From Candidatus Poriferihabitaceae bacterium (GTDB lineage: Bacteria > Pseudomonadota > Gammaproteobacteria > Arenicellales > Poriferihabitantaceae), in the NCBI GenBank assembly GCA_965221795.1, contig OZ244914.1, forward strand, positions 826,030 to 890,029: a stretch of 64,000 nt of DNA. Reading direction: 5' to 3'. The position numbers and the translations under genes were made by a program. Under the pieces are notes generated by a model. It saw nothing but the letters and a program-made list of their open reading frames with translations. It did no database searches and was not told where the DNA came from. The number at the start of each line of letters is the position of its first letter. Position 1 is the first letter of the stretch. This document shows, in pieces, positions 7,177 through 59,952 of the stretch.

Positions 7177-7198
7177 GGGGGGGGGGGGGGGGGGGGGG
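7177..7198. repeat. homopolymeric G22 tract (C22 on the minus strand)
   Basis: Counted directly: 22 consecutive G. Lies between the convergent genes 6528..6830 and 7422..8249. Confidence 0.95.
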
Positions 7199-26257: not shown

Positions 26258-28633
26258 TCAGACTTCCAGTGTAGATTGAATAAAAAGCTCATCATTATTA
26301 TGTACCAATCGGTACCCCATCGCTGCATACCCCTTGCAGCGACGCTGGAACATGCGCTGCAACATTGGTAATGAGCTGTCGACATAGTCGTAAATCGTCA
26401 CTTTCTTTTTGTTTGCAGCTACTCTATGAATACGTCCTGCGTACTGCACAAGTGAGCCTTTCCAGGAAATGGGCAGTGTTAGGAATAGTGTATCCAGTCT
26501 GGGAAGATCAAAGCCTTCACCAATATACTTGCCAGTCGCAATCAACACTTGCGCAGTTGAGGCTTTTTCCATGACTTGTGCTCTCTCTTTAGCTCGCATT
26601 GCTCCACGTAAAACAAGGGTCTGATATCCCCGGCTGGACAGTGCTTCGCTAAGTAAGCCAGCATGTTCTCGCCGTTCCGTTAACACCAAGGAGCTTCGGC
26701 CAAGTTCAATCTGATCGGCAACATCCTGCACGATTAACCGATTCCTCATATCGGATTCCATCAGCCATCGGTAAACGTCTGCGATTTGCAGCTTCGCCTC
26801 TGAGGCTAATGTTACAGGCGGCCTTCCTGCTACTGGCCTGACGATGACATGCTGCTCAAAATGATCTGTCTTATCGCTTTTAACCCGATGACGGATAGGG
26901 CCTGCCTGCATAAAGATAATCGGATGATGGCCATCCTGCCGTTCCGGTGTGGCGGTTAGGCCGAGAACAAAGCGTGCCCTGACATCGGACAAAAGGCGAT
27001 CATAATTCGGTGCTGATACGTGATGGCACTCGTCGATAATAACCTGACCATAGCTCAGCAGTAATGGATCCACGCTGTTATCCTTTTTGCTCAACAAGCT
27101 TTGGTAGGTAGCAATATCAATACAACCAGTCGGTGTGCGCTTGCCCCCACTAATGGCACCAATGTCGGCACCATCCAGAAAAGCCGATAAGCGTTCCTTC
27201 CATTGATCGAACAGTTGTCGAGTATGAGTCAGTATCAGGGTGTTAGTCTTGCGTTTGGCGATTACACCAATGGCGGTTATCGTTTTTCCAAATGCCGTTG
27301 GCGCATGGAGAATCCCCACATCGTGAGCGAGTAATTTCTTAACCGCATGCTTCTGCTCTCCACGCAGTTCACCCAGAAACCGGATATCTTTCAAGCGCTG
27401 TCCTGCTTCCCGTTTATCATCAATCTCAATCACAATATTCTGCTCAGTGAGTAATTGCCGAATATCATCAAGACACCCACGGGGAACAATTAAGTAGTCC
27501 TGCTCGATGCGAGCCAAGCTGATATAGCGAGGAATGCCGTGGGTACTGAACCGCATCGCTTGTGTTTTAAAGAATACCGGATTAGCAAAACTGGCCTGGT
27601 GTTTCAGGCGGGCCAACAATTTTGATGGCAGAGTGCTGACTGGAATAAACACCTGATTCGCCAGTACGATTTTCAGTCTCACCGGGCAATTCTCGACCTT
27701 TGTGTGGTCGGCAGGAATACCTTGCTCCCAAGGCTTGGCTTCTGTTTCCGGCATTTCCCCTTCGAACTGGTGGAGAAGCCTATGCAGTTTGTCGAGCGCA
27801 AGCCGATTCAGTCTGCTAAGAAACTGCCACTGATCGGTGTAAGCGACTAGATACTGATCAACAAAAACTGAGTTTCCGTATTGACGAGGCTGGCGCTGTA
27901 AAGGTAGCGCGATCAAATTGCCGAAACCACCGCTTGGCACTGAATCCTGATTCGGAAATAAGCGATCATAGGAGTCAAATGACAAGCCTGGATAGCTTTC
28001 CATTGCGCAGCCCAGTAATCCAAATCCCAAGCGCCGCGCATCTCTTGCGGATACCTTGTTTTCAAAGAAAATCCAGATATGTGCGCCATTTCCGGAACGG
28101 GAGCGCTCTATAGCATAGGGAACGTTATGGAATTCACAAGCTTGCGCGAATGCTTTTGCTGCCTGCTGCCAATCCGATTTGTCAAAATCCACCGCCAACA
28201 ACCGACAGGTATCGTCGCGCATGAGCGGATATAGCCCAACTGTCTGGAAGCCGGACAAGTGTTCAAATATGGCTCTGGGTTCCAATGCTTTATAGGCCTT
28301 ATTGGTGCATTCACCGCATTTGATTTTTGGTTTGTTGCATAAACCTGGTCGCCATTCGTTATGGCAGGCCACTGCATAGCCGCTTTTCCCTGTACTGTTT
28401 TCCCACCGGAGGGCGTAGATATCTTCTCTGCCGACAAAGAAATTCTGGAATAGCGAGACTTTCTCGTTGGGTGAAAGTGTAGATGAGGTGGCAATCAAAT
28501 TTGGGGGCGTAGACCCCAACTGAGACTTTCGAGCAAGTAATCGTGATTTTTCTTCTTCCAGTTCCTGAAGCCGTTGATTGATCGATTCGACTTCCTGAAT
28601 GATATGGGATCGATCATCAGTAGCCACAAACAA
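26258..28633 (-). CDS. archaeo-eukaryotic primase (AEP/PrimPol-like) domain fused to an SF2 DEAD/DEAH helicase
   Basis: AEP motifs LLAVDFD, SGNGAHIWIFF and YDRLFP, plus a Cys cluster (CNKPKIKCGECTN). Helicase motifs APTAFGKT, IIDECHH, LGLTATP and YAGRIHR. Confidence 0.75.
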   Translation of the reverse strand: MFVATDDRSHIIQEVESINQRLQELEEEKSRLLARKSQLGSTPPNLIATSSTLSPNEKVSLFQNFFVGREDIYALRWENSTGKSGYAVACHNEWRPGLCNKPKIKCGECTNKAYKALEPRAIFEHLSGFQTVGLYPLMRDDTCRLLAVDFDKSDWQQAAKAFAQACEFHNVPYAIERSRSGNGAHIWIFFENKVSARDARRLGFGLLGCAMESYPGLSFDSYDRLFPNQDSVPSGGFGNLIALPLQRQPRQYGNSVFVDQYLVAYTDQWQFLSRLNRLALDKLHRLLHQFEGEMPETEAKPWEQGIPADHTKVENCPVRLKIVLANQVFIPVSTLPSKLLARLKHQASFANPVFFKTQAMRFSTHGIPRYISLARIEQDYLIVPRGCLDDIRQLLTEQNIVIEIDDKREAGQRLKDIRFLGELRGEQKHAVKKLLAHDVGILHAPTAFGKTITAIGVIAKRKTNTLILTHTRQLFDQWKERLSAFLDGADIGAISGGKRTPTGCIDIATYQSLLSKKDNSVDPLLLSYGQVIIDECHHVSAPNYDRLLSDVRARFVLGLTATPERQDGHHPIIFMQAGPIRHRVKSDKTDHFEQHVIVRPVAGRPPVTLASEAKLQIADVYRWLMESDMRNRLIVQDVADQIELGRSSLVLTERREHAGLLSEALSSRGYQTLVLRGAMRAKERAQVMEKASTAQVLIATGKYIGEGFDLPRLDTLFLTLPISWKGSLVQYAGRIHRVAANKKKVTIYDYVDSSLPMLQRMFQRRCKGYAAMGYRLVHNNDELFIQSTLEV

Positions 28634-29093
28634 ACACCGCTGTCTTCAATAAATGCTCGCCTTCAGAAATGAAGAATAAGTAGCATATTTTATGGAGGAT
28701 AGGGAAAACCTCCACACCGTTATCAGTGCAAGCGTAGGAAATACAGCCAGATTCTACGGGATATTGAAAACCCCCGTTCCAGTTATCGCCCTTGAATACG
28801 GCAAGATCAATATCTTCCAAAAAACGATGCAGCAGGCGATAAGCCTTAGACAGGGATGTTCCACCCTTGAACACAACATCATCGACGTGGACTGATTCAG
28901 ACAGATGTTTCAGTGACTGAGTGACCCAATAACCTTTTTCACCATACACCTGCGGCAAGCCAAAAGTTTCAGCGGCTAGCGGCACAAATTCGGAAAAAAC
29001 CTCATTGTCTTGATATCGATTCAATTGTTTCTTGTAACTCTTGCATCCCTGACGCTCAACGCGCTGTCGACTTTCTTGCAACGAAGAACTCAT
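28617..29093 (-). pseudogene. N-terminal fragment of an AbiEii/AbiGii-family nucleotidyltransferase toxin
   Basis: GEKGYWVTQSLKHL and FKGGTSLSKAYRLLHRFLEDIDLAVF match the AbiEii N-terminus. The sequence then loses family character and stops at about half the usual length. No AbiEi partner is present. Confidence 0.5.
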
Positions 29094-29844
29094 ACCCGTA
29101 GCTTTCCGGGTAGGACTCACGAATCGCAATCTCTTTTCGAACCGAATCGATCACTGACAGGCCAATTTCATCATTCGCATACTTCTTCTCCAAGGCGGAT
29201 AAGCGCTGAACAAGCGGTGAATAGTAGCCGTCCCACCAAGCACTGTCTGGCAACGTAAAATGTTCGAGATGCTGATACCCCGCGTTCTCAATTTCTGCAA
29301 CGATGCTTTCTCGCCCAGCCATTGCCGGATACTCGTCAGAGAAAAAGGTCAAGGCGTCATCTGGCGGGCTATCGGTCAGCCAGACAAGTTCCGTGAACGC
29401 CAAGTAACCACCGCTCTTAAGCAGAGGCTTCCACTTCGATAGCGCGTTGGGAACGCCCATGATGTAGGCCGACCCTTCCGCCCACACGAGGTCAAAACTC
29501 TCCGGTTCGAGCGGCAGATCGTTCATGTCCGCCGGCAACACTTCGATGCGGTTTGCAGTCCCCTGCTCTTCAGCCCGAAACCGAAGTTCGCTTAAGTAAG
29601 GGTCGTGGAAATCGACCGCCGTGATCATTGCATCGGTTTTAATCTCGGCAATGTCGAGCGTTTGCGCGCCTGGACCGCAGCCGATATCCAACACGCGGGG
29701 GCTTGACGGGAGTTCGGTACACAGTTCGAGCGCCTTTTGCGTACTCTTGGCATCGCCGGGGCCCTGCCGCGGCAAATCCGACTGGACTTCAAAGAAAACT
29801 TCCATCATATGCTTATCGGTCTGCGAAGACTCTAGATCACTCAT
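29056..29844 (-). CDS. class I SAM-dependent methyltransferase
   Basis: Motif I VLDIGCGPGAQTLDIA. AGGAG lies 5-6 nt upstream of the ATG at 29844. Confidence 0.8.
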   Translation of the reverse strand: MSDLESSQTDKHMMEVFFEVQSDLPRQGPGDAKSTQKALELCTELPSSPRVLDIGCGPGAQTLDIAEIKTDAMITAVDFHDPYLSELRFRAEEQGTANRIEVLPADMNDLPLEPESFDLVWAEGSAYIMGVPNALSKWKPLLKSGGYLAFTELVWLTDSPPDDALTFFSDEYPAMAGRESIVAEIENAGYQHLEHFTLPDSAWWDGYYSPLVQRLSALEKKYANDEIGLSVIDSVRKEIAIRESYPESYGYEFFVARKSTAR

Positions 29845-31643
29845 GACCTCTCCTGATTGGTTTTCGCTTGCTTGGCATTGAGCACCTGAAGACCGAAAGC
29901 CCGTTCCCTTGAGCGGCGTTCGGCCAATGTCTCTGTGTTTCGACACTCTTCTGCTTCAAGTTTGCGATATCGATCCAGTCGCTTTTCGTCTAGTTGCCCG
30001 TCCGCAATAGGGCGGCGTACCGCATAACCCGGTTCAGTTTCATGCTGGCAGTCGCTAAAACGGCACTGACTAGGGCGTGTTAACGCTACGCAGTGTATCG
30101 ATGACCCGCGCGAAGACGACGAATCCGAGATACATGACATCAAGCTGGTCGAAGCGCGAGAAGACTCGGCGAAAGCCCTTGAGTCGCCGGAACCGGCGCT
30201 CGACCTCGTGGCGCCGCCGGTACCGTTTCCGGTCGTATTCCCAGGGGGTGATGCGACGGCTTTTCGGCGGGACCCCGGGCGTGAAGCCGAGGTCGGCAAC
30301 CGGCCGGCGGGTTTCCTCGTCTTCATCGGCCCGATCCATGACCAGTGCCGGTCGGTGTGACGGCTTCTTCCGCCGCTGCCGGAGCTTCCGCCCCTCCGGG
30401 GCATCGTGCGCGTTGCCGGGAGAGCGCGCGAAGGCAACGGCCGTTCGGGTATCCGCGGCCACCAGAAGAAGCTGGGTGTTGCATCCGCCCCGGGACTTTC
30501 CGATGCCCTGGGCGCCGTTTTTTGTAGCGCCCCCGTGCCCTCGGGATGCCCCTTGATGCGGGTGCTGTCCAGGCCCATGGCCTCCCCCCGGATCCGGATC
30601 ATCCGCTGCCGCTGCCGAGGCTCGAACACGCGGTCCAGAACCCCGTTCTTCGACCACCGGTTGATGCGCGTGTCGATGGTGTGCCCGTTGCCGAAGGGCT
30701 CCGGCAGGCCGCGCCCCTTGCCGCCGTGCTCGGCCACGTCGAGAATGGCGTTGAGTACCGGCAGGGTCGAGAGGCTGACCTTGCCCCGCGGCCTCGGCCG
30801 CAGCGGGGCCATGCGCTCGTACGGTGCCCGTGTCAGTTCCATTGCCGGTTCTTCCGTAATGTTCCGGTTGAAAATCACGGGCACCGAGTATACCATGTCT
30901 GGAAGAGATTGTGTTAACACGCCCTAGCCAGTTCGATTATATCGTCGAAGATTGACTCGATGCCTTCATGCACATCGACTAACTGGAGCTCCCGCATGCC
31001 TGGGGTATCGAGCAGCCACCCGCCAGAGCCTAATCGATACAATGTTCTACTCGTCGTGGTATAGCGACCCTTGTCATCGTCGCTTCTTATACCTCCGTTT
31101 GATCCGTTGCTCCGGTCAGCGTGTTGATGATGGTGGACCTCCCGACCGGACGAACCCATCAGCGTCACACCATGCCAACAGCACCTCCAAAAAACTGGGC
31201 TCCAGTGCATTCACCAATTCGACGAATACACCCGGCCGTACTCCCTCGGCCCGCTGCCTATAATCGCTCGGGACAGCACACTCATCGATCTTCGTCAGAA
31301 CGATCACCGGGATCACACCCGCTTCCTCTGCGAGTACAAGGTAGCGCTCCAGGCGGGCCACATTGAAATCTTGATTGCATGACGTAACGATAAGAGAGCA
31401 TATTGACGTTTGCCGCAATCAGTTGGACCTCTCTGCCTGTCCCCGTCGCACTACCGATTGAACACACTGATTGCGCTCAAGCCGCCGTGAAAAACGCATG
31501 TCATGGCCGAACAGCAATCAATCTCCAACCGTGGCTTGGCCTTCATGCAGTTTTTTATCGACCGGGACTCTGGCGTCACCTGTGACACCGGCAAGGTCGA
31601 GGTGATTGCGATGGACTGCGCTAATACGCATGGCGTTGGACAT
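29841..31643 (-). pseudogene. rsgA: rsgA-like (YjeQ) GTPase gene, inactivated several times
   Basis: Pieces present: VGD(stop)LLF, RLERYLVLAEEAGVIPVIVLTKID, GGWLLDTPGMRELQL and CRFSDCQHETEPG. Lesions: in-frame TGA at 31518..31520, a frameshift near 31116-31210, and an IS insertion at 30074..30923. Confidence 0.7.
30074..30923 (-). mobile_element. IS5-family (IS427-group-like) insertion sequence
   Basis: 12-bp perfect terminal inverted repeats GGGCGTGTTAAC / GTTAACACGCCC, flanked by TA on both sides within CTAG-like context. Transposase lies in two frames: an N-terminal DUF4096-like part and a DDE part (HEVERRFRRLKGFRRVFSRFD). Confidence 0.75.
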
Positions 31644-31744
31644 CTGCAGCTCACCCCCAGATAACTGAGAACGCAAGTGAGAGCCCTATCCGAGCGCTGT
31701 TAGCTTATTTTCGTCAATTCCCATATTAAAATCTACCTAAAATT

Positions 31745-31826
31745 GGTCTATATATAGACCGCAATATCTATAAATGATCCATATATAGATCATTTTCTTG
31801 ACAAGATATGATGAATCGAGTACTTT
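31745..31826 (+). promoter_or_regulatory. hipBA promoter with palindromic operators
   Basis: Perfect 16-bp palindrome GGTCTATATATAGACC (31745..31760). Near-palindrome ATGATCCATATATAGATCAT (31774..31793). Then TTGACA (31798..31803), 17 nt, TACTTT. Confidence 0.5.
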
Positions 31827-31884
31827 GGTTCATAGAAAGATCATAAAGCATTCTTATGGTCTATATACGATACATTTAAGAACG

Positions 31885-32223
31885 ATGCCAAAGTCTATTA
31901 CACGTACCTACTCCCGCTACAGCCGCGATGCAACCGCATTGCTCGCCGGGCTGATCCGTGCAGCGCGAAAGGAACGCCAGTTGACTACTCAGGAGTTAGC
32001 AGACCGCGCTGGCATTTCGAGAGGATTGCTGCAACGCATTGAAAAAGGCGATCTCAAGTGCGAAATTGGTGCTGTTTTCGAAGTGGCCACCATTGTTGGT
32101 GTCAAGCTTTTTGAGGCTGATGAAAGAGCGCTGTCCAAACACCTGAGCCAGACGAAGGATAAACTAGCGCTATTGCCAAAGTCCGTTCGCAAGAAATCGA
32201 AGGCGGTACGCGATGACTTCTAA
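31885..32223 (+). CDS. hipB: HipB-like XRE-family antitoxin
   Basis: HTH QELADRAGISRGLLQRIEKG. Overlaps the hipA start by 11 nt. Confidence 0.75.
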   Translation: MPKSITRTYSRYSRDATALLAGLIRAARKERQLTTQELADRAGISRGLLQRIEKGDLKCEIGAVFEVATIVGVKLFEADERALSKHLSQTKDKLALLPKSVRKKSKAVRDDF

Positions 32224-33472
32224 CAGCGACAAAGAAGCCTTCGTTTGGATTTGGTTGCCGGACGAAACCACGCCAGTGGTTGCCGGACGGCTGGAAGCGG
32301 ACAATGGCAATGTTCTGTTCAACTATGGACAGAGCTATCTGAAGCGCATCGGCGATCAGCCTTCCGCAATTCCGATCTACGAACCCGAGTTGCCGTTACA
32401 AGCCGGAGCGTTGCCGCTACCGGAAGGATTAACTATGCCCAGTAGTATTCGGGACGCTGCCCCCGATGCGTGGGGTCGGCGTGTAATGATTAACAAGAAG
32501 CTCGGTCTCGAGGGCTCTGATACGGACACCGCCGAGCTGGACGAGTTGACCTATCTGCTGGATTCCGGCTCTGATCGGATTGGTGCGCTCGATTTTCAGC
32601 ATTCACCGACCGAGTATGTACCGCGTGTCGCCAACAACGTCAGCATGGAAGAACTGATTGAATCCGCTGGGCGCGTCGAGAAAGGCGTCCCGCTCACGCC
32701 CGAACTGGATCAGGCATTGTTCCACGGCAGCTCCATCGGCGGTGCGCGCCCCAAAGCCCTGATCCAAGATCAGGGCAAAAAGTATGTTGCCAAGTTTTCA
32801 TCCAGCACCGACCTGTACAGCGTTGTAAAGGCCGAATTTATCGCCATGCGGCTGGCACATCTTGCCGGGTTGAATGTCGCGCCTGTAAAGCTGGTCAAGG
32901 CCGCGAAGAAAGACGTGCTGCTGATTGAGCGCTTTGACCGCCAACAAAAAGATGGAGGCTGGTCACGCCGCGCCATGGTCTCGGCACTAACGCTGCTCGG
33001 GCTGGATGGCATGATGGCGCGCTACGCCAGCTATGAAACGCTGGCCGAAACCATTCGCCACCGATTCACCGACCCGAAAGATACCTTGAAAGAGTTATTC
33101 TCACGGCTGGCTTTCAATATTCTGTGCGGCAACACTGACGACCATGCCCGCAATCATGCCGCTTTCTGGAATGGCAATTCACTGACATTGACGCCAGCGT
33201 ATGACATCTGCCCGCAAGGGCGAACAGGCAACGAGGCGTCTCAGGCGATGCTGATATCAGGCAACAACAATATGAGTCAGCTCAAATCCTGTGTTGAAGC
33301 GGCGAATCATTTCCTGCTCTCGGAGGACGATGCCCGAGCAATCTTCGGCCATTTGACCGAATCCATCGAAAAGCATTGGGACTTGGTATGCGAGGAAGCC
33401 GAATTGAGCGAAGTGGACAGGAAACTTTTCTGGGGAAGGCTGTTTCTAAACCCTTATTCGACTGAACAATAA
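32213..33472 (+). CDS. hipA: type II toxin-antitoxin system HipA-family kinase toxin
   Basis: GSDRIGALDF, GSSIGGARPKAL and the catalytic CGNTDDHARNHA motif. 419 aa. Confidence 0.9.
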   Translation: MTSNSDKEAFVWIWLPDETTPVVAGRLEADNGNVLFNYGQSYLKRIGDQPSAIPIYEPELPLQAGALPLPEGLTMPSSIRDAAPDAWGRRVMINKKLGLEGSDTDTAELDELTYLLDSGSDRIGALDFQHSPTEYVPRVANNVSMEELIESAGRVEKGVPLTPELDQALFHGSSIGGARPKALIQDQGKKYVAKFSSSTDLYSVVKAEFIAMRLAHLAGLNVAPVKLVKAAKKDVLLIERFDRQQKDGGWSRRAMVSALTLLGLDGMMARYASYETLAETIRHRFTDPKDTLKELFSRLAFNILCGNTDDHARNHAAFWNGNSLTLTPAYDICPQGRTGNEASQAMLISGNNNMSQLKSCVEAANHFLLSEDDARAIFGHLTESIEKHWDLVCEEAELSEVDRKLFWGRLFLNPYSTEQ

Positions 33473-33698
33473 GCAGCCGCTTTGAAAAGCCCATTGATTC
33501 AAACGACATTAATGGAATTTTTTCCAAGATTGACGATCTTGAACTTGAGGAAACGCCGAAAGTCATGATCGACGTGCGCGTATTTCATCAAAAGCCATTG
33601 CCTCCGGCCTAAACGAAGACAGAATGCCATGCCCATCGGCAAGGCATGGGGACAGTCAACGATCAATGGCAACCGAAAACGCGGCACGGGCATTTTGA

Positions 33699-33840
33699 AC
33701 AATCACCTCTATCGGTGAACTGATCTGGAACCGCCAACGGTTTATCAAAGACCCGGCTACGGGACATCGTGTCCCTCGGTTCAACCCTGAATTCGAATGG
33801 ATACGCCAGAATGTGCCGGATTTGGGTATCCTGATGGACG
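33699..33840 (+). pseudogene. fragment of a large serine recombinase (about 47 codons)
   Basis: IGELIWNRQRFIKDPATGHRVPRFNPEFEWIRQNVPDLGIL matches the conserved 'recombinase' domain segment of large serine recombinases. It has no start and abuts IS21 debris. Confidence 0.45.
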
Positions 33841-34560
33841 GTGACCGGCTTCCACTCGGCGAACTCGTAGGGCTCCCGGGGCAGTGGCTTCCCGGCCGGC
33901 TGGTCAATCGGCTCGAAGAGTTCCCGGCGGGAGCCGGGAGCTTCGGGAACGGCTTGCGGTGGCGCTTCTCCCGCAGCCCCCGGATCTCGGCGTTGACCTC
34001 AGCCAAGGAGCAGAACGGCCGGTTGCGCAGGGACGCGAGGATCCACCGCTCCGCCAGTAGCACACTCCACTCCGCGGGGGCCTGGTCCCGAGGTTTGCCA
34101 ACGCGCGCCGGGACCACGGCCACGGCCACGGAATCGTGGTCCGCCATCTCCGGGTTGATGGGGTGAAGGTCGGGATCGTACCGGTGGGCCTTCGTCACCG
34201 CGGACCGTAGATGGTCCGGCACGACGATCTCGACCACGCCGCCCAGGGTTTCGAAGCCGCGCGGGTGGGACCCGATCCAGTCCTCCAGACCCTGGCTCCT
34301 GATGACGTCGGCATCGGGGTACCCCGATGCCCCCAGCGCTGCGACGAAGACCTGCGCTGCCCGCACCTCCCCGCTCCACCGGTCGAGGATCTCTACCGTC
34401 CTGCCGGCATCATCGACCAAACCGCTTCTCCCCCGCCTGGTGGTCCGGCCGCATCACCCGATCCCGCTTCCCGGCCCCGTGGCGGTCGTGCCGGCAGAAC
34501 CCGGAGGACTCGGTTCCTCCAGAGTGCGGTTCCCGGGATTCCTACCCGAGCAGGAGCCGG
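33840..34560 (-). pseudogene. IS21-family IstA transposase fragment, frameshifted
   Basis: HQAGEKRF, VFVAALGASGY, HPRGFETLGGVVEIVVPD and RYDPDLHPINPEMADH follow the IstA core, spread over two frames. A further IS-end-like hairpin lies at about 34565-34650. Confidence 0.6.
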
Positions 34561-34819
34561 GTTACACCCTTGTGGCCTCCGAGTCGGACGGTGTCCCACC
34601 GCGGGTGCTTGCGACCCCCTGAAACAGACTTTTCAGGGTCGACTCGGTAACCTCACGCTAGAATGGATCGTCATCGCCAGCGCCAGACAATTCGTCGAAA
34701 TATGCGAGATTCATCTTCTCTTCGAAGAACTTCTTTGCAGTCATGTTCTTGTAAGCAATCCGGTCTTTTCCGACGTTCAGCATTGCAGCAATACGCGACC
34801 GTCCATCTTCGATACGACC

Positions 34820-35746
34820 TTACACAAGGTCTGGCTTGTCTTCAAAAATTGGAGCCACGACTAAGACTTTGAGGTACTCGCTACGCGTAATGGCCTGTCC
34901 AATAAGACGGTTCACATAGTCGTCGCTGAAACTATAGCCAATAACGACAATAAACCGCAGCGCCTCATTCAATGAGTATTTACGAAGCTCATGCACGTAG
35001 AATAGGTAAGGATCAATTGAACTCAATTTCGCGGCAGTACCGAAAATCAGTTCAGGGTTTGGCTGCGGGTTGTCGCATAACGTCAGTACGCCGCGATTAG
35101 TCTTGTCTCTGATCCAGTCTATAGAGCCATGCAGCTTGTAAAGATACACTTCAACATCTGCATTCTCATTGGTATCGAATTTTGACGCTTCCCACTCTCG
35201 GTCGCTGTTGAACCCCAATTCAATACTAAAATCCGTACCAGCGAGGGCTTTCTCGACGCAGATATCGTAGTTGAGCGTAAAAACGCGCACTGCGCTCCCA
35301 GGATCAGATACTAAATCTCTAAATCCGCGAAAATAGTTCGACCTGTCATAGTTGCTGATATTTATCCATTGAAAGAGTTGTGAGCGTATTTTCTTGTCCA
35401 GTTTGGCGACCATCTCAAACTCTTCCCCGGCTACTTTTAGAAGATGGATGTTCCAGCCGCCTATAAAAGGATACAGCTTGTTCTGATGCTTCTGGTTTAT
35501 CTCTGATAGCACGTCTAACAGCTCTTCAATAGTAGCGGTCTGCTCTTCGAATGCGCCCTCAAGTCCTCTCTGATAGATAATCGAGCTTTTTAGGTAGTTA
35601 TACAGTTCGTAAAACTCTTTGAAATCTGTGTCAGATCGTATCTTCTCTTCGATATCAAGCGTCATTGCCTTTGCGTGCTTGATCCCTGCATCCACGCTGG
35701 CTCCGGCCCCTAGAAGAAACAATAACGAATCTTCTCTTAAACTCAT
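34820..35746 (-). CDS. stand-alone SIR2-family (SIR2_2-like) protein, predicted NAD+-consuming effector
   Basis: LLGAGASVDAGI (NAD-binding loop), FTLNYD, LYKLHGSIDW (catalytic His) and VVIGYSFSD. AAGGAG SD. Only 13 nt downstream of the Argonaute stop. No APAZ-like extension. Confidence 0.85.
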   Translation of the reverse strand: MSLREDSLLFLLGAGASVDAGIKHAKAMTLDIEEKIRSDTDFKEFYELYNYLKSSIIYQRGLEGAFEEQTATIEELLDVLSEINQKHQNKLYPFIGGWNIHLLKVAGEEFEMVAKLDKKIRSQLFQWINISNYDRSNYFRGFRDLVSDPGSAVRVFTLNYDICVEKALAGTDFSIELGFNSDREWEASKFDTNENADVEVYLYKLHGSIDWIRDKTNRGVLTLCDNPQPNPELIFGTAAKLSSIDPYLFYVHELRKYSLNEALRFIVVIGYSFSDDYVNRLIGQAITRSEYLKVLVVAPIFEDKPDLV

Positions 35747-35759
35747 TTTGTTCTCCTTT

Positions 35760-37658
35760 CTACAAGAACCATGGCGCTAATGACTTAGCGCTCACGATGT
35801 TCATGTCGTTAACGTTTTCAAGATGCGAAAACTCCCTCATGAATTTCGCAATAAGCCTTGAATACAGGATCGAAATTGGCTGGGCTTTAGAATTGAACCC
35901 GCGCCAATTAGCGCCTGTCAGATTCAAGATATCCTGAAGACACTCCTTCTTTGTTGCCCATTCCTCTTGTGACTTAATAAAGTCCACGTACAATGGCTCC
36001 GAGACTCGCTTGTGCAGCACCTCTTTTCCGTATTGCAATCCTTCGGCCCATATCAAAAACTCGTTTTTTGATATCTGAACATACGTGCTCTCATAAGGAA
36101 CGCAGGTATTGTGATCGCTAAATCCAAGGAATTTGTGCTTGGTATTTACCCGTATGACGATGACCTCGAACTCGTCCGCTTTTCTGATTTCCGAAACGAC
36201 CGCTTTGATAACTTCGATCTCTTTTCGGCTGATTTTGTAGGGTAGATGCAAAACGAGCGATTTGTAGTGGTCACCAAGCTCGCTTTGCAAAACTTCCTTT
36301 AGATTAGTTTGCAGGCTACCTAGATAGGTTTCTTCGTTGTTCGATGACGAGAGAGGCTTAGTGTATTTGAAGTCGCCACTGGAATCTAAACAAACCGTAT
36401 ACGCGGTATATCTTGTCATATTGCCTTGAACTCTTTCCTGCACACTCCCCAACCCAAAAATCAGGCAGTTGCTTTTGGCAGGCTGTACTAGCCAAGGTGC
36501 GCCTCCAAGCTTGCTAAATATCTGCAACCCAATATTGGATACAGACCATTTCAATTGATCCTTTTTAAAGAAAGTGTCTTCAGTGACAACCTGACAATAT
36601 GCATCGTTTCTCAATGCCATTAGCTTTAGATGGCCGTAGGCGTCGTAAGCTGCTTCTACGCCCTTGAAGCCTTTCGGAAGGACTGCTACGAGCATCACCT
36701 TGCTATTCATGTGGGATGCCTTGAACTGCTGTACACGACCTTCGATAGCTTCTATTGCGTCTGCGTCAAACATGCTTACTAGATGATGCTCAACGATGTC
36801 TTTGTGAATTGGTACAGAGAACATCTTCTCTAAGCCAGAGAACTGACCCGGAAACAACTTGCCAACTAGTCCAAGATAGATATCTCTCGCTAACGACCGC
36901 GTTCTCTCGGTGAAAAGAAAGAGATACCTAACATCGTCATCCATGCGACGGTACGGCCCGTTGGCCCTAATTCCCATGAACTGCGACTTGGCTGTTTGTC
37001 CACCACCAACTAGATAGGTCTTTACATCAAGCTTTTTGGCGGGCAGAGAAGAAAATTCGCTGATAGCAAGGCCGGAATTCGAAAGTAACGGTGAGAGCAC
37101 GTCCTTGGTGAAGTTCTCAAGGGTCGATTTCTTGTCCTTGTAGAAATAGATGTTTGGTTTTCCAGACTTATCGAGAGAGAAGCTTCGGATTTGCGTCTGC
37201 CTGTTAAACGGCTGATCGTCTTTGAGGGAGAACTTGTGTTCAATGAGAAGCCCAAATTGCCTTTTTCCCTTTAGGAAATAAGGCTTGACAATTAGCTCAG
37301 TATTTCCTTCGCCGAACTTCTCTGTAACAAAGCGAACCTCCTTCAGCGTAATGGCCTTCTCAGGAATGTAGTAATCAAGTTCTCCAGCTTCGATCGTTTT
37401 CAGAAAGTCTTGGTATATGAGATGCACTGTCAGAACAGGATTCTGAGAATACTCGAACTGGTACGCTTCGTAACCGTCTCGCTCGACGGTAGATACATCA
37501 AACAACACCCATTCCTCATCACCCTCTTGCGCGGGCAAATTGGCGCGAAAATCCTCGTCCTTCTTAGCAAGAGAACTGTCATGGACACGGATTCGATACA
37601 CTGTTACGCTATTGTCTTGTTTGAGCAGAGGAACAAAGTTCAATGCGATGCTATCCAT
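35760..37658 (-). CDS. prokaryotic Argonaute (MID-PIWI with a ~240-aa N-terminal region), catalytically inactive
   Basis: PIWI hallmarks: NIGLQIFSKLGGAPWLV (KLGGAPW at 36492..36512), NWRGF...PISILYSRLIAKF, and C-terminal APWFL. Catalytic positions are replaced (IFGLGS, LHLPYK). MID Y-K..Q..K pattern (AYGHLK...CQVV...SKLGG). Start is ATG 37658, with GGAGG 8 nt upstream, or 37664. Confidence 0.85.
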   Translation of the reverse strand: MDSIALNFVPLLKQDNSVTVYRIRVHDSSLAKKDEDFRANLPAQEGDEEWVLFDVSTVERDGYEAYQFEYSQNPVLTVHLIYQDFLKTIEAGELDYYIPEKAITLKEVRFVTEKFGEGNTELIVKPYFLKGKRQFGLLIEHKFSLKDDQPFNRQTQIRSFSLDKSGKPNIYFYKDKKSTLENFTKDVLSPLLSNSGLAISEFSSLPAKKLDVKTYLVGGGQTAKSQFMGIRANGPYRRMDDDVRYLFLFTERTRSLARDIYLGLVGKLFPGQFSGLEKMFSVPIHKDIVEHHLVSMFDADAIEAIEGRVQQFKASHMNSKVMLVAVLPKGFKGVEAAYDAYGHLKLMALRNDAYCQVVTEDTFFKKDQLKWSVSNIGLQIFSKLGGAPWLVQPAKSNCLIFGLGSVQERVQGNMTRYTAYTVCLDSSGDFKYTKPLSSSNNEETYLGSLQTNLKEVLQSELGDHYKSLVLHLPYKISRKEIEVIKAVVSEIRKADEFEVIVIRVNTKHKFLGFSDHNTCVPYESTYVQISKNEFLIWAEGLQYGKEVLHKRVSEPLYVDFIKSQEEWATKKECLQDILNLTGANWRGFNSKAQPISILYSRLIAKFMREFSHLENVNDMNIVSAKSLAPWFL

Positions 37659-38003
37659 GTGCATGTCCTCCGTTTCGGCTGCTCGTCAAGTCTTCCAGAA
37701 ATTCGGAAGGTACTTCACCGCTGGTTACCAACAGACGATCTCTAGCCCTCGTAAATGCCACATACAGCAAATGTCGTTCGGTGTCGTAGACTTCTTCCAA
37801 ATCAGCGTTGTCGGCTACTCCTTCTATCCGCTCTTGTGAGGGAATGATTTCATCGTCGCACGCCATGACCACGATCGCTTTGAACTCCAACCCCTTAACC
37901 AAGTGCATCGTGCACAATGCCGCGCTTCTGTGCGCCAAGTAGCTATCCAGTAGCTCGTATGGAATATCGGCTCTTTCTAGCACCGCTTTTGCGCGATCTA
38001 ATT
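37651..38003 (-). pseudogene. C-terminal fragment of a UvrD/Rep-type SF1 helicase
   Basis: TMHLVKGLEFKAIVVM and LLYVAFTRARDRLLV are SF1 motifs V and VI. The 5' end is cut at the edge of repeat copy 2. Its stop overlaps the Argonaute start (ATGGATAG). Confidence 0.7.
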
Positions 38004-38295
38004 GGGGCCCATGGCCCATCCAATTCACACAGCTAGCACTTACCGAAAGTCTTCATCCCGGGAGCGCCAAACCATACAACTTTTCCAGAAAAACAAAACC
38101 CCGCATCAGCGGGGTCGCTTTTCAATCCGGTCAGATTGGTAGCAGGGGCTGGCCACGATGACACAAACCGCTGATCACGGCCCGCGATATAGCCTCTCAA
38201 CCCGCACCATGAGCCGCATTACTGCCAACCCTAGAGGAAGTGCGCGACTGTCAGGGCGGATATTATAACCACTTGACCCGGCGTTCATCAAGGGG
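38004..38295 (-). repeat. copy 2 of the ~290-bp direct repeat
   Basis: Aligns with 23576..23864. Contains the same TTGATG-18-TATAAT (38262..38291), the CTGCTACCA segment and the terminator (38089..38114). A G10 tract follows. Confidence 0.85.
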
Positions 38296-39058
38296 GGGGG
38301 GCGGAGCAGACCGACGGTTGGGTTCGGTTGCCGGGCGAAGGGATGGCGGGGCAGGAGTGGAGGTGCCCGTAGGTGCGGGCGGACCGGCAGGCCGGAGGGA
38401 CGCGGTACCGATGCCGGCGGCGTCGGGTCCAGAAGCCGAACGGGCGCGGGGGGCGTCCTGCTGGACGGGGCCATATCCCGGATCGAGTGGACCTTGCGGA
38501 GCGGCCTTCGGTGGTGGCCGAGAAGAGCTGGATCGGCGATTGGGAGCGGGAACCGATCCTTGGCGCGAGACCCCGGGGGAGCGGGTATCAGCAGCGGATC
38601 GGGGCTCGAAGTTCCGGTTCCTGGAGTGGGTGGAGGGCCAGACCGCGGCTGCGGTGACCGCGACGCTCACCCGGCGTCCGGGTCCAGTCCGGGACCGGGT
38701 CCACACCGGCACGGCAGATAACGGCAAGGAGTTCGCGAGGCATCGGGAGATCGCACAGAAGCTTGATGCGGGCTTTTACTTTGCCACCCCCTACCCTTCC
38801 TGGGAACGGGGCCGGAACGAGCACCCCCATGGCCGGGTGCGCGAGTACTTCCCGAAGGGCACCGACTGCCGCCAGGTGCCCCCGACACTCCGGGCCCTCC
38901 GGTGATCCACCGGAGCGGCCACTCGACCTCCAAGTTCCGAACTCGCCTTTGCCTTGGCCGATGGCTTCGCTCAGGATCACCGGCCGTCGAGATGGGTGCC
39001 ATCTGAGGTCGAAAAAAAGGCGTTCGCAGCGCGGGTGCACTTCGGACTGGCCCCGGGG
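38296..39058 (+). pseudogene. IS30-family element remnant (5'-truncated, frameshifted)
   Basis: Transposase pieces (ADRQAGGTRYRCRRRR, DRGSKFRFLEWVEGQTAAAV, TADNGKEFARHREIAQKLDAGFYFATPYPSWERGRNEH) lie in several frames. A terminal IR sits near 39030-39058. Confidence 0.6.
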
Positions 39059-39141: not shown

Positions 39142-39761
39142 CTAGCTGCTGGTGGCCGGCGTCTCAAAGCAGAGTTGTGCGAACACAGGCTTAGGCTTGT
39201 GAGGATTGCCGACACCCCTCAAGAGGGTCTCAGTCACATTCCGATTTCCTCTTCCAAGAGAAACATACCTTAAATTGCCTACAACAAGCTGAGCCACATG
39301 TTTCGTAGCTGGTGCTAGGTTATGAAATGTTACTGGTGATCCGATTATAAGGTCTCGAATCCCGCCCACAAATCCGACCGTCCCCACAAGATGACGAAAA
39401 CCACCATGGATGGGTCCGTCTTCGTCTCTCACTGTGAAATACATATCAGCATGAGTGAAATCCGTCAGCCATGTTCCGGAGATCTCTGATAAACCCTCTA
39501 TATCCCTTGGGGATATCGGGGATGTACCACCACCAACCGTGGCTTGGGTTGTATCAGGACGACCCCGCTCGGCCTCGCTTTTTATATCAGAAACTCTAAT
39601 ATACGATGTTCCTTTCTGACTAAATCCTTCCGGGCAGGCCGCTGGTCCCAACGTCTGCGCATTCACGGCTGCCGGCAGGGCTATGGCCGCCAGCAACAGG
39701 AAGGCCGTTAGTTTAGCGAGGGGGGGGGGGGGGGGGGGGGCAAGTTACGTAAATATTTCAT
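39142..39761 (-). CDS. secreted hypothetical protein with a poly-C tract in the signal-peptide coding region, currently out of frame
   Basis: GGAG, then ATG AAA TAT TTA CGT AAC TTG, then C21, then (in the other frame) LAKLTAFLLLAAIALPAAVNAQ and a 170-aa mature part. With 21 C the ATG frame hits TAA. With 19 or 22 C it would be in frame. Confidence 0.55.
39720..39740. repeat. homopolymeric G21 tract (C21 in the coding sense)
   Basis: Counted directly: 21 consecutive G. Confidence 0.95.
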
Positions 39762-39831
39762 TGCTGTCTCCAATGTCGAATGATGTTCGAGCAATTATAT
39801 CCCAATTTCGTGCAGAATGAGGTGATTTTCA

Positions 39832-40917
39832 ACCCCCCTTTTCCAGCGTGAGGTGCAACACCCTGTAAGCCGCTGGCTGGCGAGGTGACCAGAAGCTTGC
39901 GGCGGGCCAGAGGATGGTCAACCATCTCGGTTTCTCACCCACGGAGGATTGCCATGCCCGTAGGTTACCACCACCGGACCCATGTCGAACGATGCCCGAT
40001 TCACGCCCGGTTGCATCGGGGGGTGGTCGAAACGGGAGATGGCCCGCGACCTCGGACGGGATCCCGCGACGATCTCGCGCGAGACCTCGCGCCACCGTGG
40101 CCAACGCGGCGACCGGCACCAACCGGCCGACGGCCAGGCCACGGCCCGTCGCCAGGAAGCGTCGGCGGTGCCCCGGAAGATGACACCGGAGCGCTGGGCG
40201 GTCGTGGAAGAACGGTTGCAGGAAGGCTGGAGGCTGGAGCCCGGAGCAGATTGCCGGCTGGGTTCGGTTGCCGGGCCAAGGGATGGCGGGGAAGGAGTGG
40301 AGCTACCCGCACGTACGGGCGGATCGGCAGGCCGGAGGGACCCGGTACCGGTGCCTGCGACGTCGGGGCAAGCAGCCGAACGGGCACGGCGGCCGGCACG
40401 CCGGACGCGGCCACATTCCCGATCGGGTGGACCTTGCGGACCGTCCGGCGGTGGTGGACCGGGGCTCGAAGTTCCGGTTCCTGGAGTGGGTGGACGGGAA
40501 GACCGCGTCGGCGGTGACCGCGGCGATTACCCGGCGCCTGGGGCCGGTTCGGGACCGGGTCCACACCGGCACCGTCGACCTCGGAAGGTTCTGGAGGTTC
40601 GTACCCCGGAAGAGGTCTTTGCCCGTGGGTTGGCTCCCCCCGGACGCGGCCCACGGTCGCCCCTCGACCCCGGCACTCCGGTCCCTCTGGTGATCCACCG
40701 GAGCGGCTTCGCTCGGCCTCCCGGTCCTGAGTGCGCCCTTGCCTGGGCCGATGGCTTCGGTCAGGATTGCCCGCAGTCGAGATGGGTGCCATCGGTGGCC
40801 AAAATGAGCGCCTTGGGGGGCGAATTTTTCGGTCGCCGCCACGATCTCTGCCTTCGGGCTACGCCCTCATTCCGGGATCGCGGCGACTGTTGCACTTCGG
40901 AGTGGAAGCGGGGGTTC
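39832..40917 (+). pseudogene. IS30-family element remnant (both IRs present, transposase deleted and frameshifted)
   Basis: IR AACCCCCCTTTTCCAGCGTGAGGTGCAAC at the left end and GTTGCACTTCGGAGTGGAAGCGGGGGTT at the right. Transposase pieces lie in at least 3 frames. Confidence 0.6.
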
Positions 40918-40971
40918 AAAATAACCTTTGTATAGTCCATAAAACATCTATATGTGATTTATTATAGAGCA

Positions 40972-41310
40972 ATGCCCAAATCTATTAGACGCACCTATTC
41001 ACGTTACAGCCGCGATGCAACGGTATTGCTTGGGGGGCTGATCCGTGAGGCACGTAAAGAGCACAAGCTAACTGCACAGGAAGTAGCCGACCGTGCGGGC
41101 ATTTCCAGAGGCTTCCTGCAACGCATGGAAAAAGGCAACCTCAAGTGCGAAATCGGTGCTGTGTTTGAAGTGGCCACCATTGTCGGAGTGAAGCTCTTTG
41201 ACACCGACGAGATCACTCTTTCCAGGCACCTGAAACAGACCAGGGACAAGTTGAGTCTGCTGCCAAAGTCCATTCGCAGAAAACCCAAGGTGGTACATGA
41301 TGACTTTTAA
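40972..41310 (+). CDS. hipB: HipB-like XRE-family antitoxin (second copy)
   Basis: MPKSIRRTYSRYSRDATVLLGGLIREARKE...QEVADRAGISRGFLQRMEKG. Roughly four-fifths identical to the 31885..32223 product. Confidence 0.75.
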   Translation: MPKSIRRTYSRYSRDATVLLGGLIREARKEHKLTAQEVADRAGISRGFLQRMEKGNLKCEIGAVFEVATIVGVKLFDTDEITLSRHLKQTRDKLSLLPKSIRRKPKVVHDDF

Positions 41311-42562
41311 CGGCGAAAGGGAAGCCTTCGTTTGGATTTGGTTGCCGAATGAGACTACGCCCGTAGTGGCCGGACGGCTGGAAGCTGACAATGACCATCT
41401 CCTGTTCAATTATGGCAAGAGCTATCTGGAACGGGTTGGCGGCCAACCCCCATCAGTGTCAATTTATGAGCCCGAATTACCGCTGCAGGCCGGAATGCTG
41501 CCGCTGCCGAAAGGGTTGACCATGCCTGGTTGTATTCGGGACGCCGCCCCCGATGCGTGGGGGCGACGTGTAATTATCAACAAGAAACTCGGACTTAAGA
41601 ACGCTGGCATGGATACAGCCGAGCTGGGGGAATTGACCTATCTGCTGGAATCCGGTTCTGACCGAATTGGAGCACTCGATTTTCAGTATTCGCCGACCAA
41701 GTACGTACCGCGCTCTGCGAACAACGTCAGCATGGAAGAGCTGATAGAGTCTGCTGAACGGGTTGAAAAAGGCATCCCGCTTACACCTGAACTCGACCAG
41801 GCCTTGTTTCATGGCAGTTCCATTGGCGGTGCCCGTCCCAAAGCACTGATCCACGAACAGGGCCAAAAGTACGTCGCCAAATTTTCTTCTGGCACTGACT
41901 TATACAGCGTGGTTAAAGCCGAATTTATCGCGATGCGGCTGGCTGGACTGGCAGGCCTCAACGTTGCACCGGTCAAACTAACCAGCGCTGCTAACAAGGA
42001 TGTATTGCTCATCAAGCGCTTTGACCGACTGCCCAAAGGTGATCACTGGTCACGTCGAACAATGGTCTCCGCTCTGACCATACTGGGTCTGGACGATATG
42101 ATGGCGCGCTATGCCAGCTACGAAGTATTGGCAGAGATTATCCGCCAGCGCTTTAGCGCCCCGAAAGAAACCCTCAGAGAATTGTTTTCACGTCTGGCGT
42201 TTAACATTTTGTGCGGAAACACTGACGATCATGCGCGCAACCATGCCGCTTTTTGGGATGGTCAGGAACTGTCGCTCACACCGGCTTACGATATCTGTCC
42301 TCAGGGCCGAACTGGCAACGAGGCCTCGCAAGCCATGTTGATCGTTGGAAACAATAATATGAGTCAGCTCAAAACCTGTCTCCAGGCAGCACATCATTTC
42401 CTGTTATCGGAAAAGGATGCCCGCGCAATTTTTGATCAACAGATCACCGCGATAAAGCAGCACTGGAGCGATGCTTGTGACGAAGCGACGCTTACTGAAG
42501 TGGATAGGAAGCTGCTGTGGGGTCGTCAATTCCTAAATGACTTTTCGATTGTTGCGAATTGA
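41297..42562 (+). CDS. hipA: HipA-family kinase toxin (second copy)
   Basis: Same motifs as the first copy (GSDRIGALDF, GGARPKAL, CGNTDDHARNHA). 421 aa. Confidence 0.9.
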   Translation: MMTFNGEREAFVWIWLPNETTPVVAGRLEADNDHLLFNYGKSYLERVGGQPPSVSIYEPELPLQAGMLPLPKGLTMPGCIRDAAPDAWGRRVIINKKLGLKNAGMDTAELGELTYLLESGSDRIGALDFQYSPTKYVPRSANNVSMEELIESAERVEKGIPLTPELDQALFHGSSIGGARPKALIHEQGQKYVAKFSSGTDLYSVVKAEFIAMRLAGLAGLNVAPVKLTSAANKDVLLIKRFDRLPKGDHWSRRTMVSALTILGLDDMMARYASYEVLAEIIRQRFSAPKETLRELFSRLAFNILCGNTDDHARNHAAFWDGQELSLTPAYDICPQGRTGNEASQAMLIVGNNNMSQLKTCLQAAHHFLLSEKDARAIFDQQITAIKQHWSDACDEATLTEVDRKLLWGRQFLNDFSIVAN

Positions 42563-59055: not shown

Positions 59056-59952
59056 TTACCGGCGGACATCAACCGTGACGTCGCACCATTCGGCATACGG
59101 CGGCGCATTCGCCGCCTGCAACTCCGGCGTCGGCCAGCGGGCCGGTCCGCAATTGTAGGCAGGCGGGAAGGTGGCCACATAGCCGAGTTCATTCAAACTA
59201 GAGCGACTCTTAAGCACGGTACTGTCGTTATCGACTAATGAAGCACACTGCTCGAAATAACGTGCAGCGATGCAAATTTTACCCCAGATCCGGACGGTGA
59301 AGATGCCGTTGTGGGTACCTTGTTGACGGTCGGTGGCGGTAATCTCTTGTCGACTGTCAGGAATATCATCCGCTGCATCGCCAAGAGCAGGGGCTCCGAC
59401 ACGAGTAGAGACAGACTCTCCGTCGACCATGACCGTTTCCGGAGTATTCCATGCGTCAGGGCATCGCGGGTACCCGCGGTTGACGGTGTAAGTGTGCGTG
59501 CCAAAGCCCAACGCTCCAAGGTTGACGGTCACGGTGCGCGAGCATTTTCGGGGCCCCCAGTGGGGGCAGGCGCGGGCGATGGGTTGGCCGCGGGAATAGC
59601 GGCCGGTCGGATTGTGGAATTCGACGACCTGGGTCTGGTCCCGGTCGCCGAGCCCGTAGGCGCACCGGACATCGGAGCCGACCCCAAAGTTCATCATGCC
59701 CTGAGGATTGGGGCGGGCCTCGATATCCAGGCCTCGGGTCAAAACATTCCAGGTTCGGCCGTTAACTGAAACGGCTCGGCCGACCAAGGGTGTGGTCAGG
59801 CTGGTGACGGTTGCGGGGGTGCTTGGCAGAGCCCGTGATCTTTGGGCCGCCTGCTCCAGCTTTGTCACCTGTGCCGCCGCCGGCAGGGCAAGGGCGGCAC
59901 TCAGCAGGACGATAGCGAACGCCTTACGGCAGGGGGGGGGTATGTTCATCAT
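59056..59952 (-). CDS. secreted Cys-rich hypothetical protein with a C9 tract in codons 5-7
   Basis: GAGGA SD, then ATGATGAACATA-C9-TGC encoding MMNIPPPCRKAFAIVLLSAALALPAAAQ. The tract is in frame. 298 aa. Confidence 0.65.
   Translation of the reverse strand: MMNIPPPCRKAFAIVLLSAALALPAAAQVTKLEQAAQRSRALPSTPATVTSLTTPLVGRAVSVNGRTWNVLTRGLDIEARPNPQGMMNFGVGSDVRCAYGLGDRDQTQVVEFHNPTGRYSRGQPIARACPHWGPRKCSRTVTVNLGALGFGTHTYTVNRGYPRCPDAWNTPETVMVDGESVSTRVGAPALGDAADDIPDSRQEITATDRQQGTHNGIFTVRIWGKICIAARYFEQCASLVDNDSTVLKSRSSLNELGYVATFPPAYNCGPARWPTPELQAANAPPYAEWCDVTVDVRR
59932..59940. repeat. homopolymeric G9 tract (C9 in the coding sense)
   Basis: Counted directly. Lies in the signal-peptide N-region of the 59056..59952 gene. 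Confidence 0.9.

Follow-up and report, generated by a model that had tools for sequence, protein, structure and literature searches.

The phase-variable contingency loci of host-adapted pathogens have long been in the textbooks. In this paper we analyse a run of 21 cytosines (C21) in the signal-peptide coding region of a gene on the minus strand (39142-39832) of a 64,000-nucleotide (nt) stretch of DNA from Candidatus Poriferihabitaceae bacterium (Gammaproteobacteria; Arenicellales), which lies at positions 826,030 to 890,029 of contig OZ244914.1 in assembly GCA_965221795.1. We refer to this whole stretch as the window. We consider it likely, judging from the sequence, that the locus is a classical slipped-strand translational phase-variation (contingency) locus. 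We base this reading on the anatomy of the gene, its frame logic, a layout that recurs across a whole family of loci, length differences between copies, and intact gene bodies.

Among the closest described systems is that of Neisseria pilC1 and pilC2, for which Jonsson and colleagues are said to have reported, in 1991, a poly-G tract in the signal-peptide coding region. As would be the case here, a homopolymer lies in the coding region of a signal peptide and a frameshift by slippage switches an exported protein. However, the pilC tracts are roughly 10-15 nt long, two genes are concerned rather than about 40, and no cassette is shared across unrelated proteins. Switching of pilC was also proven experimentally in a human-associated pathogen, whereas our locus is a candidate switch in an uncultured metagenome-assembled genome (MAG) whose labels suggest a sponge symbiont. 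Combinatorial variation is represented by the opa genes of Neisseria, whose signal-peptide coding region carries CTCTT repeats, and by the outer-membrane protein genes of Helicobacter pylori, with CT repeats in the signal region. These are multigene families in which each member has its own leader repeat and an independent, stochastic ON/OFF state, so that the surface varies combinatorially, and we see a likeness to our genome in this. The repeat unit in those genes is a penta- or dinucleotide and the products are paralogues of one fold, whereas here a homopolymer is part of a cassette that stands over at least five unrelated mature-domain clusters. Campylobacter jejuni possesses a genome-wide set of poly-G contingency loci. 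The poly-C tracts of Neisseria nalP and ausI are further G/C homopolymer switches in genes of surface or secreted function (PMC5472700). Both examples are like ours in their genome-wide G/C homopolymer switches and their surface or secreted functions, but the tracts mostly measure 8-13 nt and occupy varied positions in the open reading frames (ORFs), whereas here they measure 9-30 nt, occupy one position and come with built-in stops in the OFF frames. In the nanH3 sialidase gene of Gardnerella, a tract of C8-14 by the signal-peptide coding region varies within colonies (bioRxiv 10.1101/2020.09.16.300947). Annotation loses the signal peptide of nanH3 when the tract is out of frame, as it does here and in three homologues of our protein (P0001-P0003), but nanH3 is a single gene of a Gram-positive bacterium and its tract comes just behind the signal-peptide coding region, some 100 nt into the ORF. 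The proposed mechanism is familiar from these systems. Our locus differs from them in the length of its tract, in the number of loci of its kind, in the stops in both OFF frames, in the occurrence of a cassette across bacterial classes on unrelated domains, and in the host setting. In the literature we found no published description of such switches in sponge symbionts.

On the plus strand of the window the tract reads G21 (39720-39740). The minus strand reads, in order, GGAG (39771-39768), ACAGCA, ATG (39761-39759), AAA TAT TTA CGT AAC TTG, C21 and TCGCTAAACTAACGG. A preliminary description of this DNA had given the same layout with 8 nt between GGAG and ATG. The order of its elements holds, but the spacer is 6 nt long. 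At the composition of the window, chance would produce a C/G run of 21 nt or longer about 2e-7 times in 64 kb. The preliminary description had also proposed that with 21 C the ATG frame runs into TAA, and that one C more or two fewer would yield a secreted protein of about 170 amino acids (aa), and frame arithmetic agrees on both points. At the current length the product is MKYLRNLPPPPPPPSLN followed by a stop, 17 aa in all, which is the OFF state. With C19, C22 or C25 the gene encodes a precursor of 205, 206 or 207 aa, respectively, of the form MKYLRNL-(P)n-LAKLTAFLLLAAIALPAAVNA followed by the mature part of 171 aa (QTLGP...), while C17, C18, C20, C23 and C24 give 14-18 aa each. The two OFF frames reach a stop after 3 codons and after 1 codon past the tract (TAA 39715-39713 and TAA 39710-39708, both inside 39658..39719). 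Since a TAA lies directly 5' of the tract in the frame of the mature ORF, there is no alternative start upstream for it. The sole in-frame start with C21 is a TTG at 39696, which falls in the hydrophobic core and lacks a Shine-Dalgarno sequence.

The two sides of the tract had been described as one coherent signal peptide, and we predict the same: a basic n-region, a hydrophobic core of 16 residues (h-region) and the cleavage motif VNA before Gln. Leaders of the MKHYRN/MKYLRN type are seen again at other poly-C loci. Judged by its predicted frames, the C21 gene has the structure by which contingency loci are recognised. The repeat is positioned to shift the reading frame of the gene (C21 between codon 7 and the hydrophobic core), its length differs between relatives at the level of the family, and the gene is otherwise intact and conserved, with 191 open codons past the tract.

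The gene belongs to a very small family. Its relatives were found with a word-indexed search of 5.8 billion protein clusters, which gave 2 matches, and an exhaustive search of 1.8 billion representatives, which gave 11 matches, one of them spurious (P0008, a repeat protein). We read the tracts of the homologues directly from their DNA. Eight relatives carry the tract at the same position, so that with the window gene the tract-bearing members span C8-C21, two of them ON and seven OFF. Besides the window locus, which needs one more C, the OFF members are the paralogue in the same genome (734134; C18, with a frameshift in the gene body too), L001 (C12; the gene caller read through from an upstream TTG), L002 (C11), L055 (C8; a different cassette, MKHYRN), L059 (C21; adjoining a TraG-type coupling protein) and L013 (C12). 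The last is labelled Ca. Poriferihabitans, its protein is 47% identical, and 28/30 post-tract nt are identical to the window gene. L057 (C9) and L058 (C18) are ON, and L056 has no tract and an ordinary signal peptide. Five or more distinct leaders therefore stand before the mature domain in this family, all of them with poly-C at the boundary between the n-region and the h-region. The gene body aligns end to end with its homologues and retains the conserved residues; the window protein is 52-59% identical to P0001-P0003 over the whole alignment, and 56 columns are invariant in the four closest proteins. We found no orthologues in 40 species representatives (12 of the same genus) and no identical ORF on record in other assemblies. 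Among metagenome contigs the exact 30-nt flank was absent and a profile search gave no relatives.

Gene callers mis-annotate the out-of-frame members, for example in L001 (4001-4696), L002 (4001-4516) and L055 (1501-2025). P0001 was called from an upstream TTG through the 5' untranslated region (UTR), and P0002 and P0003 begin past the tract, with little or nothing left of the signal peptide. Because such truncated, signal-less or read-through proteins arise systematically at tract genes, secretome surveys of these MAGs can be expected to under-count them. The in-genome paralogue (genome C1:733500-734260) has the leader MTQIKRS before its C18, and a 1-nt frameshift in its body (GVRGW.. versus the expected GVRGYGY..). 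In tandem after it lies a gene start, MIRLPPLILLAAALVA, with C6 only, perhaps a tract in its short, early form. In L059 (1-983 and 1365-2001) the homologue lies directly 3' of a TraG/TrwB-type coupling protein of a type IV secretion system, fused to Toprim. The homologue is thereby placed on a conjugative element, which might be a vehicle for the spread of the family.

The genome that holds the window is a single contig of 3.64 Mb with 55.5% G+C. It contains 107 C/G runs that measure 9 nt or more, the longest of 30 nt, while A/T runs reaching 10 nt are limited to one of T and none of A. A stereotyped layout is found at 40-43 of the 107 runs: ATG, 3-10 codons, C(n), the hydrophobic core of a signal peptide, and an ORF of 160-400 aa. 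The sequence that frequently follows the tract, TCGCTAAACTAG, reads LAKLA in the ON frame, and TAA and TAG in the other two. Both OFF frames are closed within 6 codons at 24/40 loci, whereas control positions inside these ORFs give 4.8%, and the enrichment extends to loci with quite different post-tract sequences. The mature domains behind the tracts form several unrelated clusters, with 17, 7, 4 and 2 members, and there are singletons as well; the window gene is a singleton bar its one diverged paralogue. A further 20 tracts lie in or beside multicopy repeats, mostly a decayed IS30-like element, and about 44 others in single-copy contexts. One explanation for so many tracts could be a loss of mismatch repair. 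We rejected it as a sufficient cause on the evidence of MutS, the repair gene that we examined: its open frame is intact, so that an obvious loss of MutS does not account for the pattern, and long runs are confined to C/G. A lineage-specific bias towards growth of C/G runs, independent of selection, exists in this genome. We argue that selection may have co-opted this bias at genes for secreted proteins, because the tracts have a stereotyped position in the signal peptide, OFF-frame stops and intact ORFs behind them.

The same junction is found in other bacteria. We scanned for a module of at least nine C followed by TCGCTARACT, which is present in 4/201 genomes sampled from the order, belonging to three genera and two families; the reversed pattern, scanned as a control in the same 201 genomes, gave zero. 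Across 185,579 species representatives the module occurs at 48 loci, all in MAGs. We took the taxonomy of these records from their titles, which name Ca. Poriferihabitans, Arenicellales, Ca. Azotimanducus, Ca. Azophilus, Pseudohongiella, Pseudomonadales, unclassified Gammaproteobacteria and, in four records, Paracoccaceae (Alphaproteobacteria). The labels suggest sponge symbionts. Within the same family, genomes in few contigs commonly have runs of C14 or longer. Fragmented MAGs have none, probably since their assemblies break there. The module is carried by four draft (whole-genome shotgun) records with tracts of C10-C14, two of which have SPAdes-style contig names and two of which give no indication of the assembler. 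Because MAGs with SPAdes-style names carry the module, the tracts are not the product of one assembly pipeline, and both ON and OFF copies are found in them.

Two-colour sequencing chemistry is known to generate long poly-G artefacts, and this is what could be said for a tract made by poly-G at a read end or by a chimeric join. We rejected this explanation, and consider its probability negligible. The tract is internal to a single contig of 3.64 Mb and its two flanks make one signal peptide; the junction is repeated at about 40 loci, in other genomes and in other assembly types; and the tracts are position-specific, while A/T runs do not show them. The earlier judgement in favour of a biological tract, and against a join, is thereby strengthened, also by the homologues that carry it at other lengths.

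The four Paracoccaceae-labelled chromosomes (L025, L046, L007 and L050) bear poly-C followed by the TCGCTAAACT module. In L025 and L046 the N-termini of some genes, compared by eye over about the first 60 residues, are nearly identical to that of locus 1189181 of our genome, for example MNQKNLNS-(P)n-LAKLATLLLLAAIAWPAQAQQLVIPATTG. This suggests horizontal exchange across classes among symbionts that may reside in the same host.

Recently duplicated loci within the genome served as an internal clock for changes in tract length. Loci 364013 and 1674328 have identical flanks (800/800 nt) and carry C23 and C29, respectively, and loci 2159215 and 3440260, identical over 400/400 nt downstream, carry C14 and C15. 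C23 and C15 are found at loci 1189181 and 2644151 (about 98.5% identical), and C25 and C20 at loci 3226498 and 3365726 (about 98% identical). The only duplicate pair of equal length is the intergenic G22 (833206 and 2019307). The tracts change in length more quickly than their flanks gather point substitutions, and therefore an OFF state can be expected to revert. That the tract would be highly prone to slippage, as had been supposed, is supported indirectly by these unequal lengths within flanks that are 100% identical.

Of the loci in this genome, 11 are ON, 22 need one more C and 10 need two more. The respective numbers for 47 module loci in other genomes are 12, 16 and 19. Overall 23/90 loci are ON (67 OFF), which does not differ significantly from the one third expected if lengths were randomised (p = 0.15). 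The excess of loci that need one more C in this genome (chi-square p = 0.045) is weak evidence for under-calling by one base, and it bears on the question whether the tract is real but its assembled length wrong or merely modal. In that case the true state could be C22 or C19, and ON. The contig names of related records (ctgN_cov x_l/c) would fit this too, as they resemble the output of a long-read metagenome assembler, which we take them to be by their style. The exact length of 21, and hence the OFF state, comes from one assembly and is provisional. We nevertheless think a wrong length unlikely, since the excess is absent in the other genomes, tracts of 9-12 nt, which should be called reliably, are mostly OFF too, and the MAGs with SPAdes-style names have ON and OFF copies. 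It would also touch only the current state and not the nature of the locus. Because short tracts, for which the expected assembly error is small, are mostly OFF as well, the OFF states in general are real rather than miscalls of long homopolymers, with ON states perhaps somewhat under-represented.

Several observations weigh against phase variation at this locus. The length of C21, taken from a single and probably long-read metagenome assembly, may err by one or more. The others would suit a mutational hazard, in which a few Pro codons in a conserved leader seeded the run and its growth, in a lineage strongly inclined to expand C/G runs, knocked the gene out, so that we would be looking at a recently inactivated and decaying gene and not at an adaptive switch. 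Around 20 long tracts lie in or beside multicopy repeats, where the expansion of C/G runs requires no selection, and sites that are C5/G6 in the repeat copies here are C10-G20 in other copies. Most loci are OFF, as are most relatives of the gene, and short tracts of 9-12 nt are ON in only 7/39 cases (p = 0.04 versus one third), which could mean that many copies are inactivated. The closest paralogue (733.6-734.1 kb) carries its additional frameshift in the gene body, and the window gene itself is placed between insertion-sequence (IS) debris in a junk-rich island. Against the hazard stands the retention of intact ORFs of 160-400 aa behind the tract at about 40 loci, whether ON or OFF. Moreover, the position of the tract is highly non-random, always at the boundary of the n- and h-regions; there is a strong enrichment of stops in the OFF frames; close relatives include ON as well as OFF copies; and the pace of length change relative to flank substitution leads us to expect reversion. 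We consider it quite improbable that the hazard accounts for the locus.

If the locus is a phase-variable switch, we infer that it would work as follows. The promoter-like and leader cassette would drive a gene for a small, exported, beta-rich protein, in which poly-C interrupts the signal-peptide coding region between the MKYLRNL n-region and the hydrophobic core LAKLTAFLLLAAIALPAAVNA. Slipped-strand mispairing during replication would alter the length of the tract, and would do so reversibly. Lengths of the form 3k+1 (19, 22, 25) would place the ATG in frame, and the precursor with its poly-Pro stretch would be exported and cleaved after VNA. At other lengths translation would end at a TAA within 1-4 codons and the exported protein would be absent. 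The assembled C21 would be OFF, with ON one C away. About 40 such switches per genome would give each cell a random subset of a diverse secretome, and a plausible use of this would be to vary what the host, phages or neighbours see.

The tract might in addition act as a dimmer, which would complement the switch rather than replace it. Slippage by RNA polymerase or by tRNA-Pro would then restore the frame in part and give low expression at any DNA length. Other bacteria provide documented cases of transcriptional slippage on long homopolymers and of tRNA-Pro slipping by +1/-1 on C runs, and the tract is unusually long, with CCC for every codon. We give this a slim chance only, as immediate stops in both OFF frames suit a clean OFF state, and transcriptional slippage is best documented on A/T runs, which this genome avoids when long. 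A modulation of the output through stalling at poly-Pro, dependent on elongation factor P (EF-P), seems to us equally improbable.

The switch, if real, would be the same trick that pathogens use, at scale: about 40 genes per genome with tracts of up to 30 nt, in uncultured bacteria whose labels point to sponge symbionts. The genes behind the tracts encode what we predict to be fast-evolving secreted proteins, and the leader module is shared by more than one bacterial class. True switching would point to the proteins by which symbionts meet their host or their phages, in one of the oldest symbioses of animals and microbes.

When the 260 nt that precede the tract were searched for elsewhere in the genome, the conserved 5' cassette (Table) had matches only at the poly-C loci 364013, 1674328 and 954062, at 84-90% identity, and weakly at 760639. 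The mature domains of these loci are unrelated, and similarity stops past the signal peptide. The conservation of the cassette suggests a promoter function. A canonical sigma-70 promoter was rejected, as the gap between TTGAAA and TATAAT is 27 nt, which exceeds canonical -35/-10 spacing, and a generic promoter scan did not call these hexamers but only a weak site that overlaps the leader. The cassette abuts the upstream copy of the decayed IS30-like repeat, whose terminal part was recognised at 40000-39835 and which ends in ...CACGCTGGAAAA and G6 (39838-39833). Since a second copy lies downstream in direct orientation, the gene is bracketed by two copies of the repeat. There are more than 65 copies of it in the genome, with 82-90% identity, and it has internal and terminal hot spots for runs, which are G6 (39833-39838) and G10 (38292-38301) here and C10-G20 elsewhere.

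The distribution of the cassette allows a wider reading, which we put forward tentatively. A portable poly-C leader cassette might head many unrelated secreted domains and be exchanged among gamma- and alphaproteobacterial sponge symbionts that live together, fed by the expansion of C/G runs, and so lead to a stochastic secretome of the whole community. The portable block could conceivably comprise the promoter-like region, the leader, poly-C, the start of the hydrophobic core and the stops in both OFF frames, although we are more inclined to doubt this than to rely on it. It is also possible, but far from assured, that the bias towards C/G-run expansion yields tracts up to C30 in such a cassette, which would make the system a symbiont counterpart of antigenic variation in pathogens.

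Table. Features of the putative phase-variable gene and its surroundings, in positions of the window
Feature	Position	Strand	Remarks
Decayed IS30-like repeat, downstream copy	38240..39014		direct orientation; 77-88% identical to the upstream copy
Mature domain, 171 aa and TAG stop (39144-39142)	39142..39657	-	ORF intact
Remainder of predicted signal peptide, (L)AKLTAFLLLAAIALPAAVNA	39658..39719	-	V-N-A at -3/-1 before Gln+1
C21 homopolymer, proposed switch	39720..39740	-	poly-Pro when in frame; between n-region and h-region of the predicted signal peptide
Leader, ATG and 6 codons (MKYLRNL)	39741..39761	-	basic n-region; stops in both other leader frames
Conserved 5' cassette, about 90 nt	39743..39832	-	TTTGAAAAT (TTGAAA 39832-39827), TATAAT (39799-39794), 5' UTR, GGAGA Shine-Dalgarno sequence, leader
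Shine-Dalgarno-like GGAG	39768..39771	-	6 nt 5' of ATG; TTGGAGA conserved in paralogous cassettes
Decayed high-GC (about 70%) IS30-like repeat, upstream copy	39833..40935		HTH_38 remnant; far boundary approximate

The mature protein is predicted to begin with QTLGPAACPEG, after the VNA cleavage motif. Conserved motifs are CP[DE]G, V-R-D/G, HG, L-x-P-[AS]-T-K-[HY]-V-A-Q-L-V-V and KPKPV-x-AQ-x-CF-x-TPA. It has two cysteines, at mature positions 8 and 163. In the family alignment Cys163 is nearly invariant and Cys8 is kept where the N-terminus is present, and the two may form a disulfide. The AlphaFold2 model is confident and all-beta (predicted local distance difference test, pLDDT, 84.5; predicted template-modelling score, pTM, 0.82). 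No match to the mature domain was found in Pfam or PHROGs, and a Foldseek search against the PDB gave nothing at E <= 1e-3, the best hit having E = 7e-3. A beta-sandwich of the FN3 or Ig-like kind, which we considered for the mature protein, is not supported by a significant fold match, the top hits being generic FN3/ApaG-like structures with template-modelling (TM) scores of 0.28-0.36. The product might be an exported beta domain of a binding type.

The gene lies in an island of defence and mobile functions (window 26258-37664 and 40954-42562). The neighbours of the gene there include an AEP-TOTE primase-helicase fusion, two diverged hipBA pairs, an operon of SIR2 and a Piwi-domain Argonaute (pAgo-SIR2), a C-terminal fragment of UvrD and IS debris.

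Other tracts of the genome occur in different settings. Some of those in single-copy contexts resemble promoter spacers, such as TTGACT-C14-TAGCTTATAGT (C14-TAGCT-TATAGT); apparent examples are found at genome C1:2601227, 2768390 and 2717603, and would mean transcriptional phase variation. An intergenic G22 lies in the window at 7177-7198, and its twin at genome 2019307 has flanks that are 100% identical. The window also holds a second gene of the same design as the C21 gene, with C9 at 59932-59940. It reads MNI-(P)3-CRKAFAIVLLSAALALPAAAQ in frame (ON) and encodes 297 aa, and a paralogue of it at genome 1335131 has C17 and is OFF.

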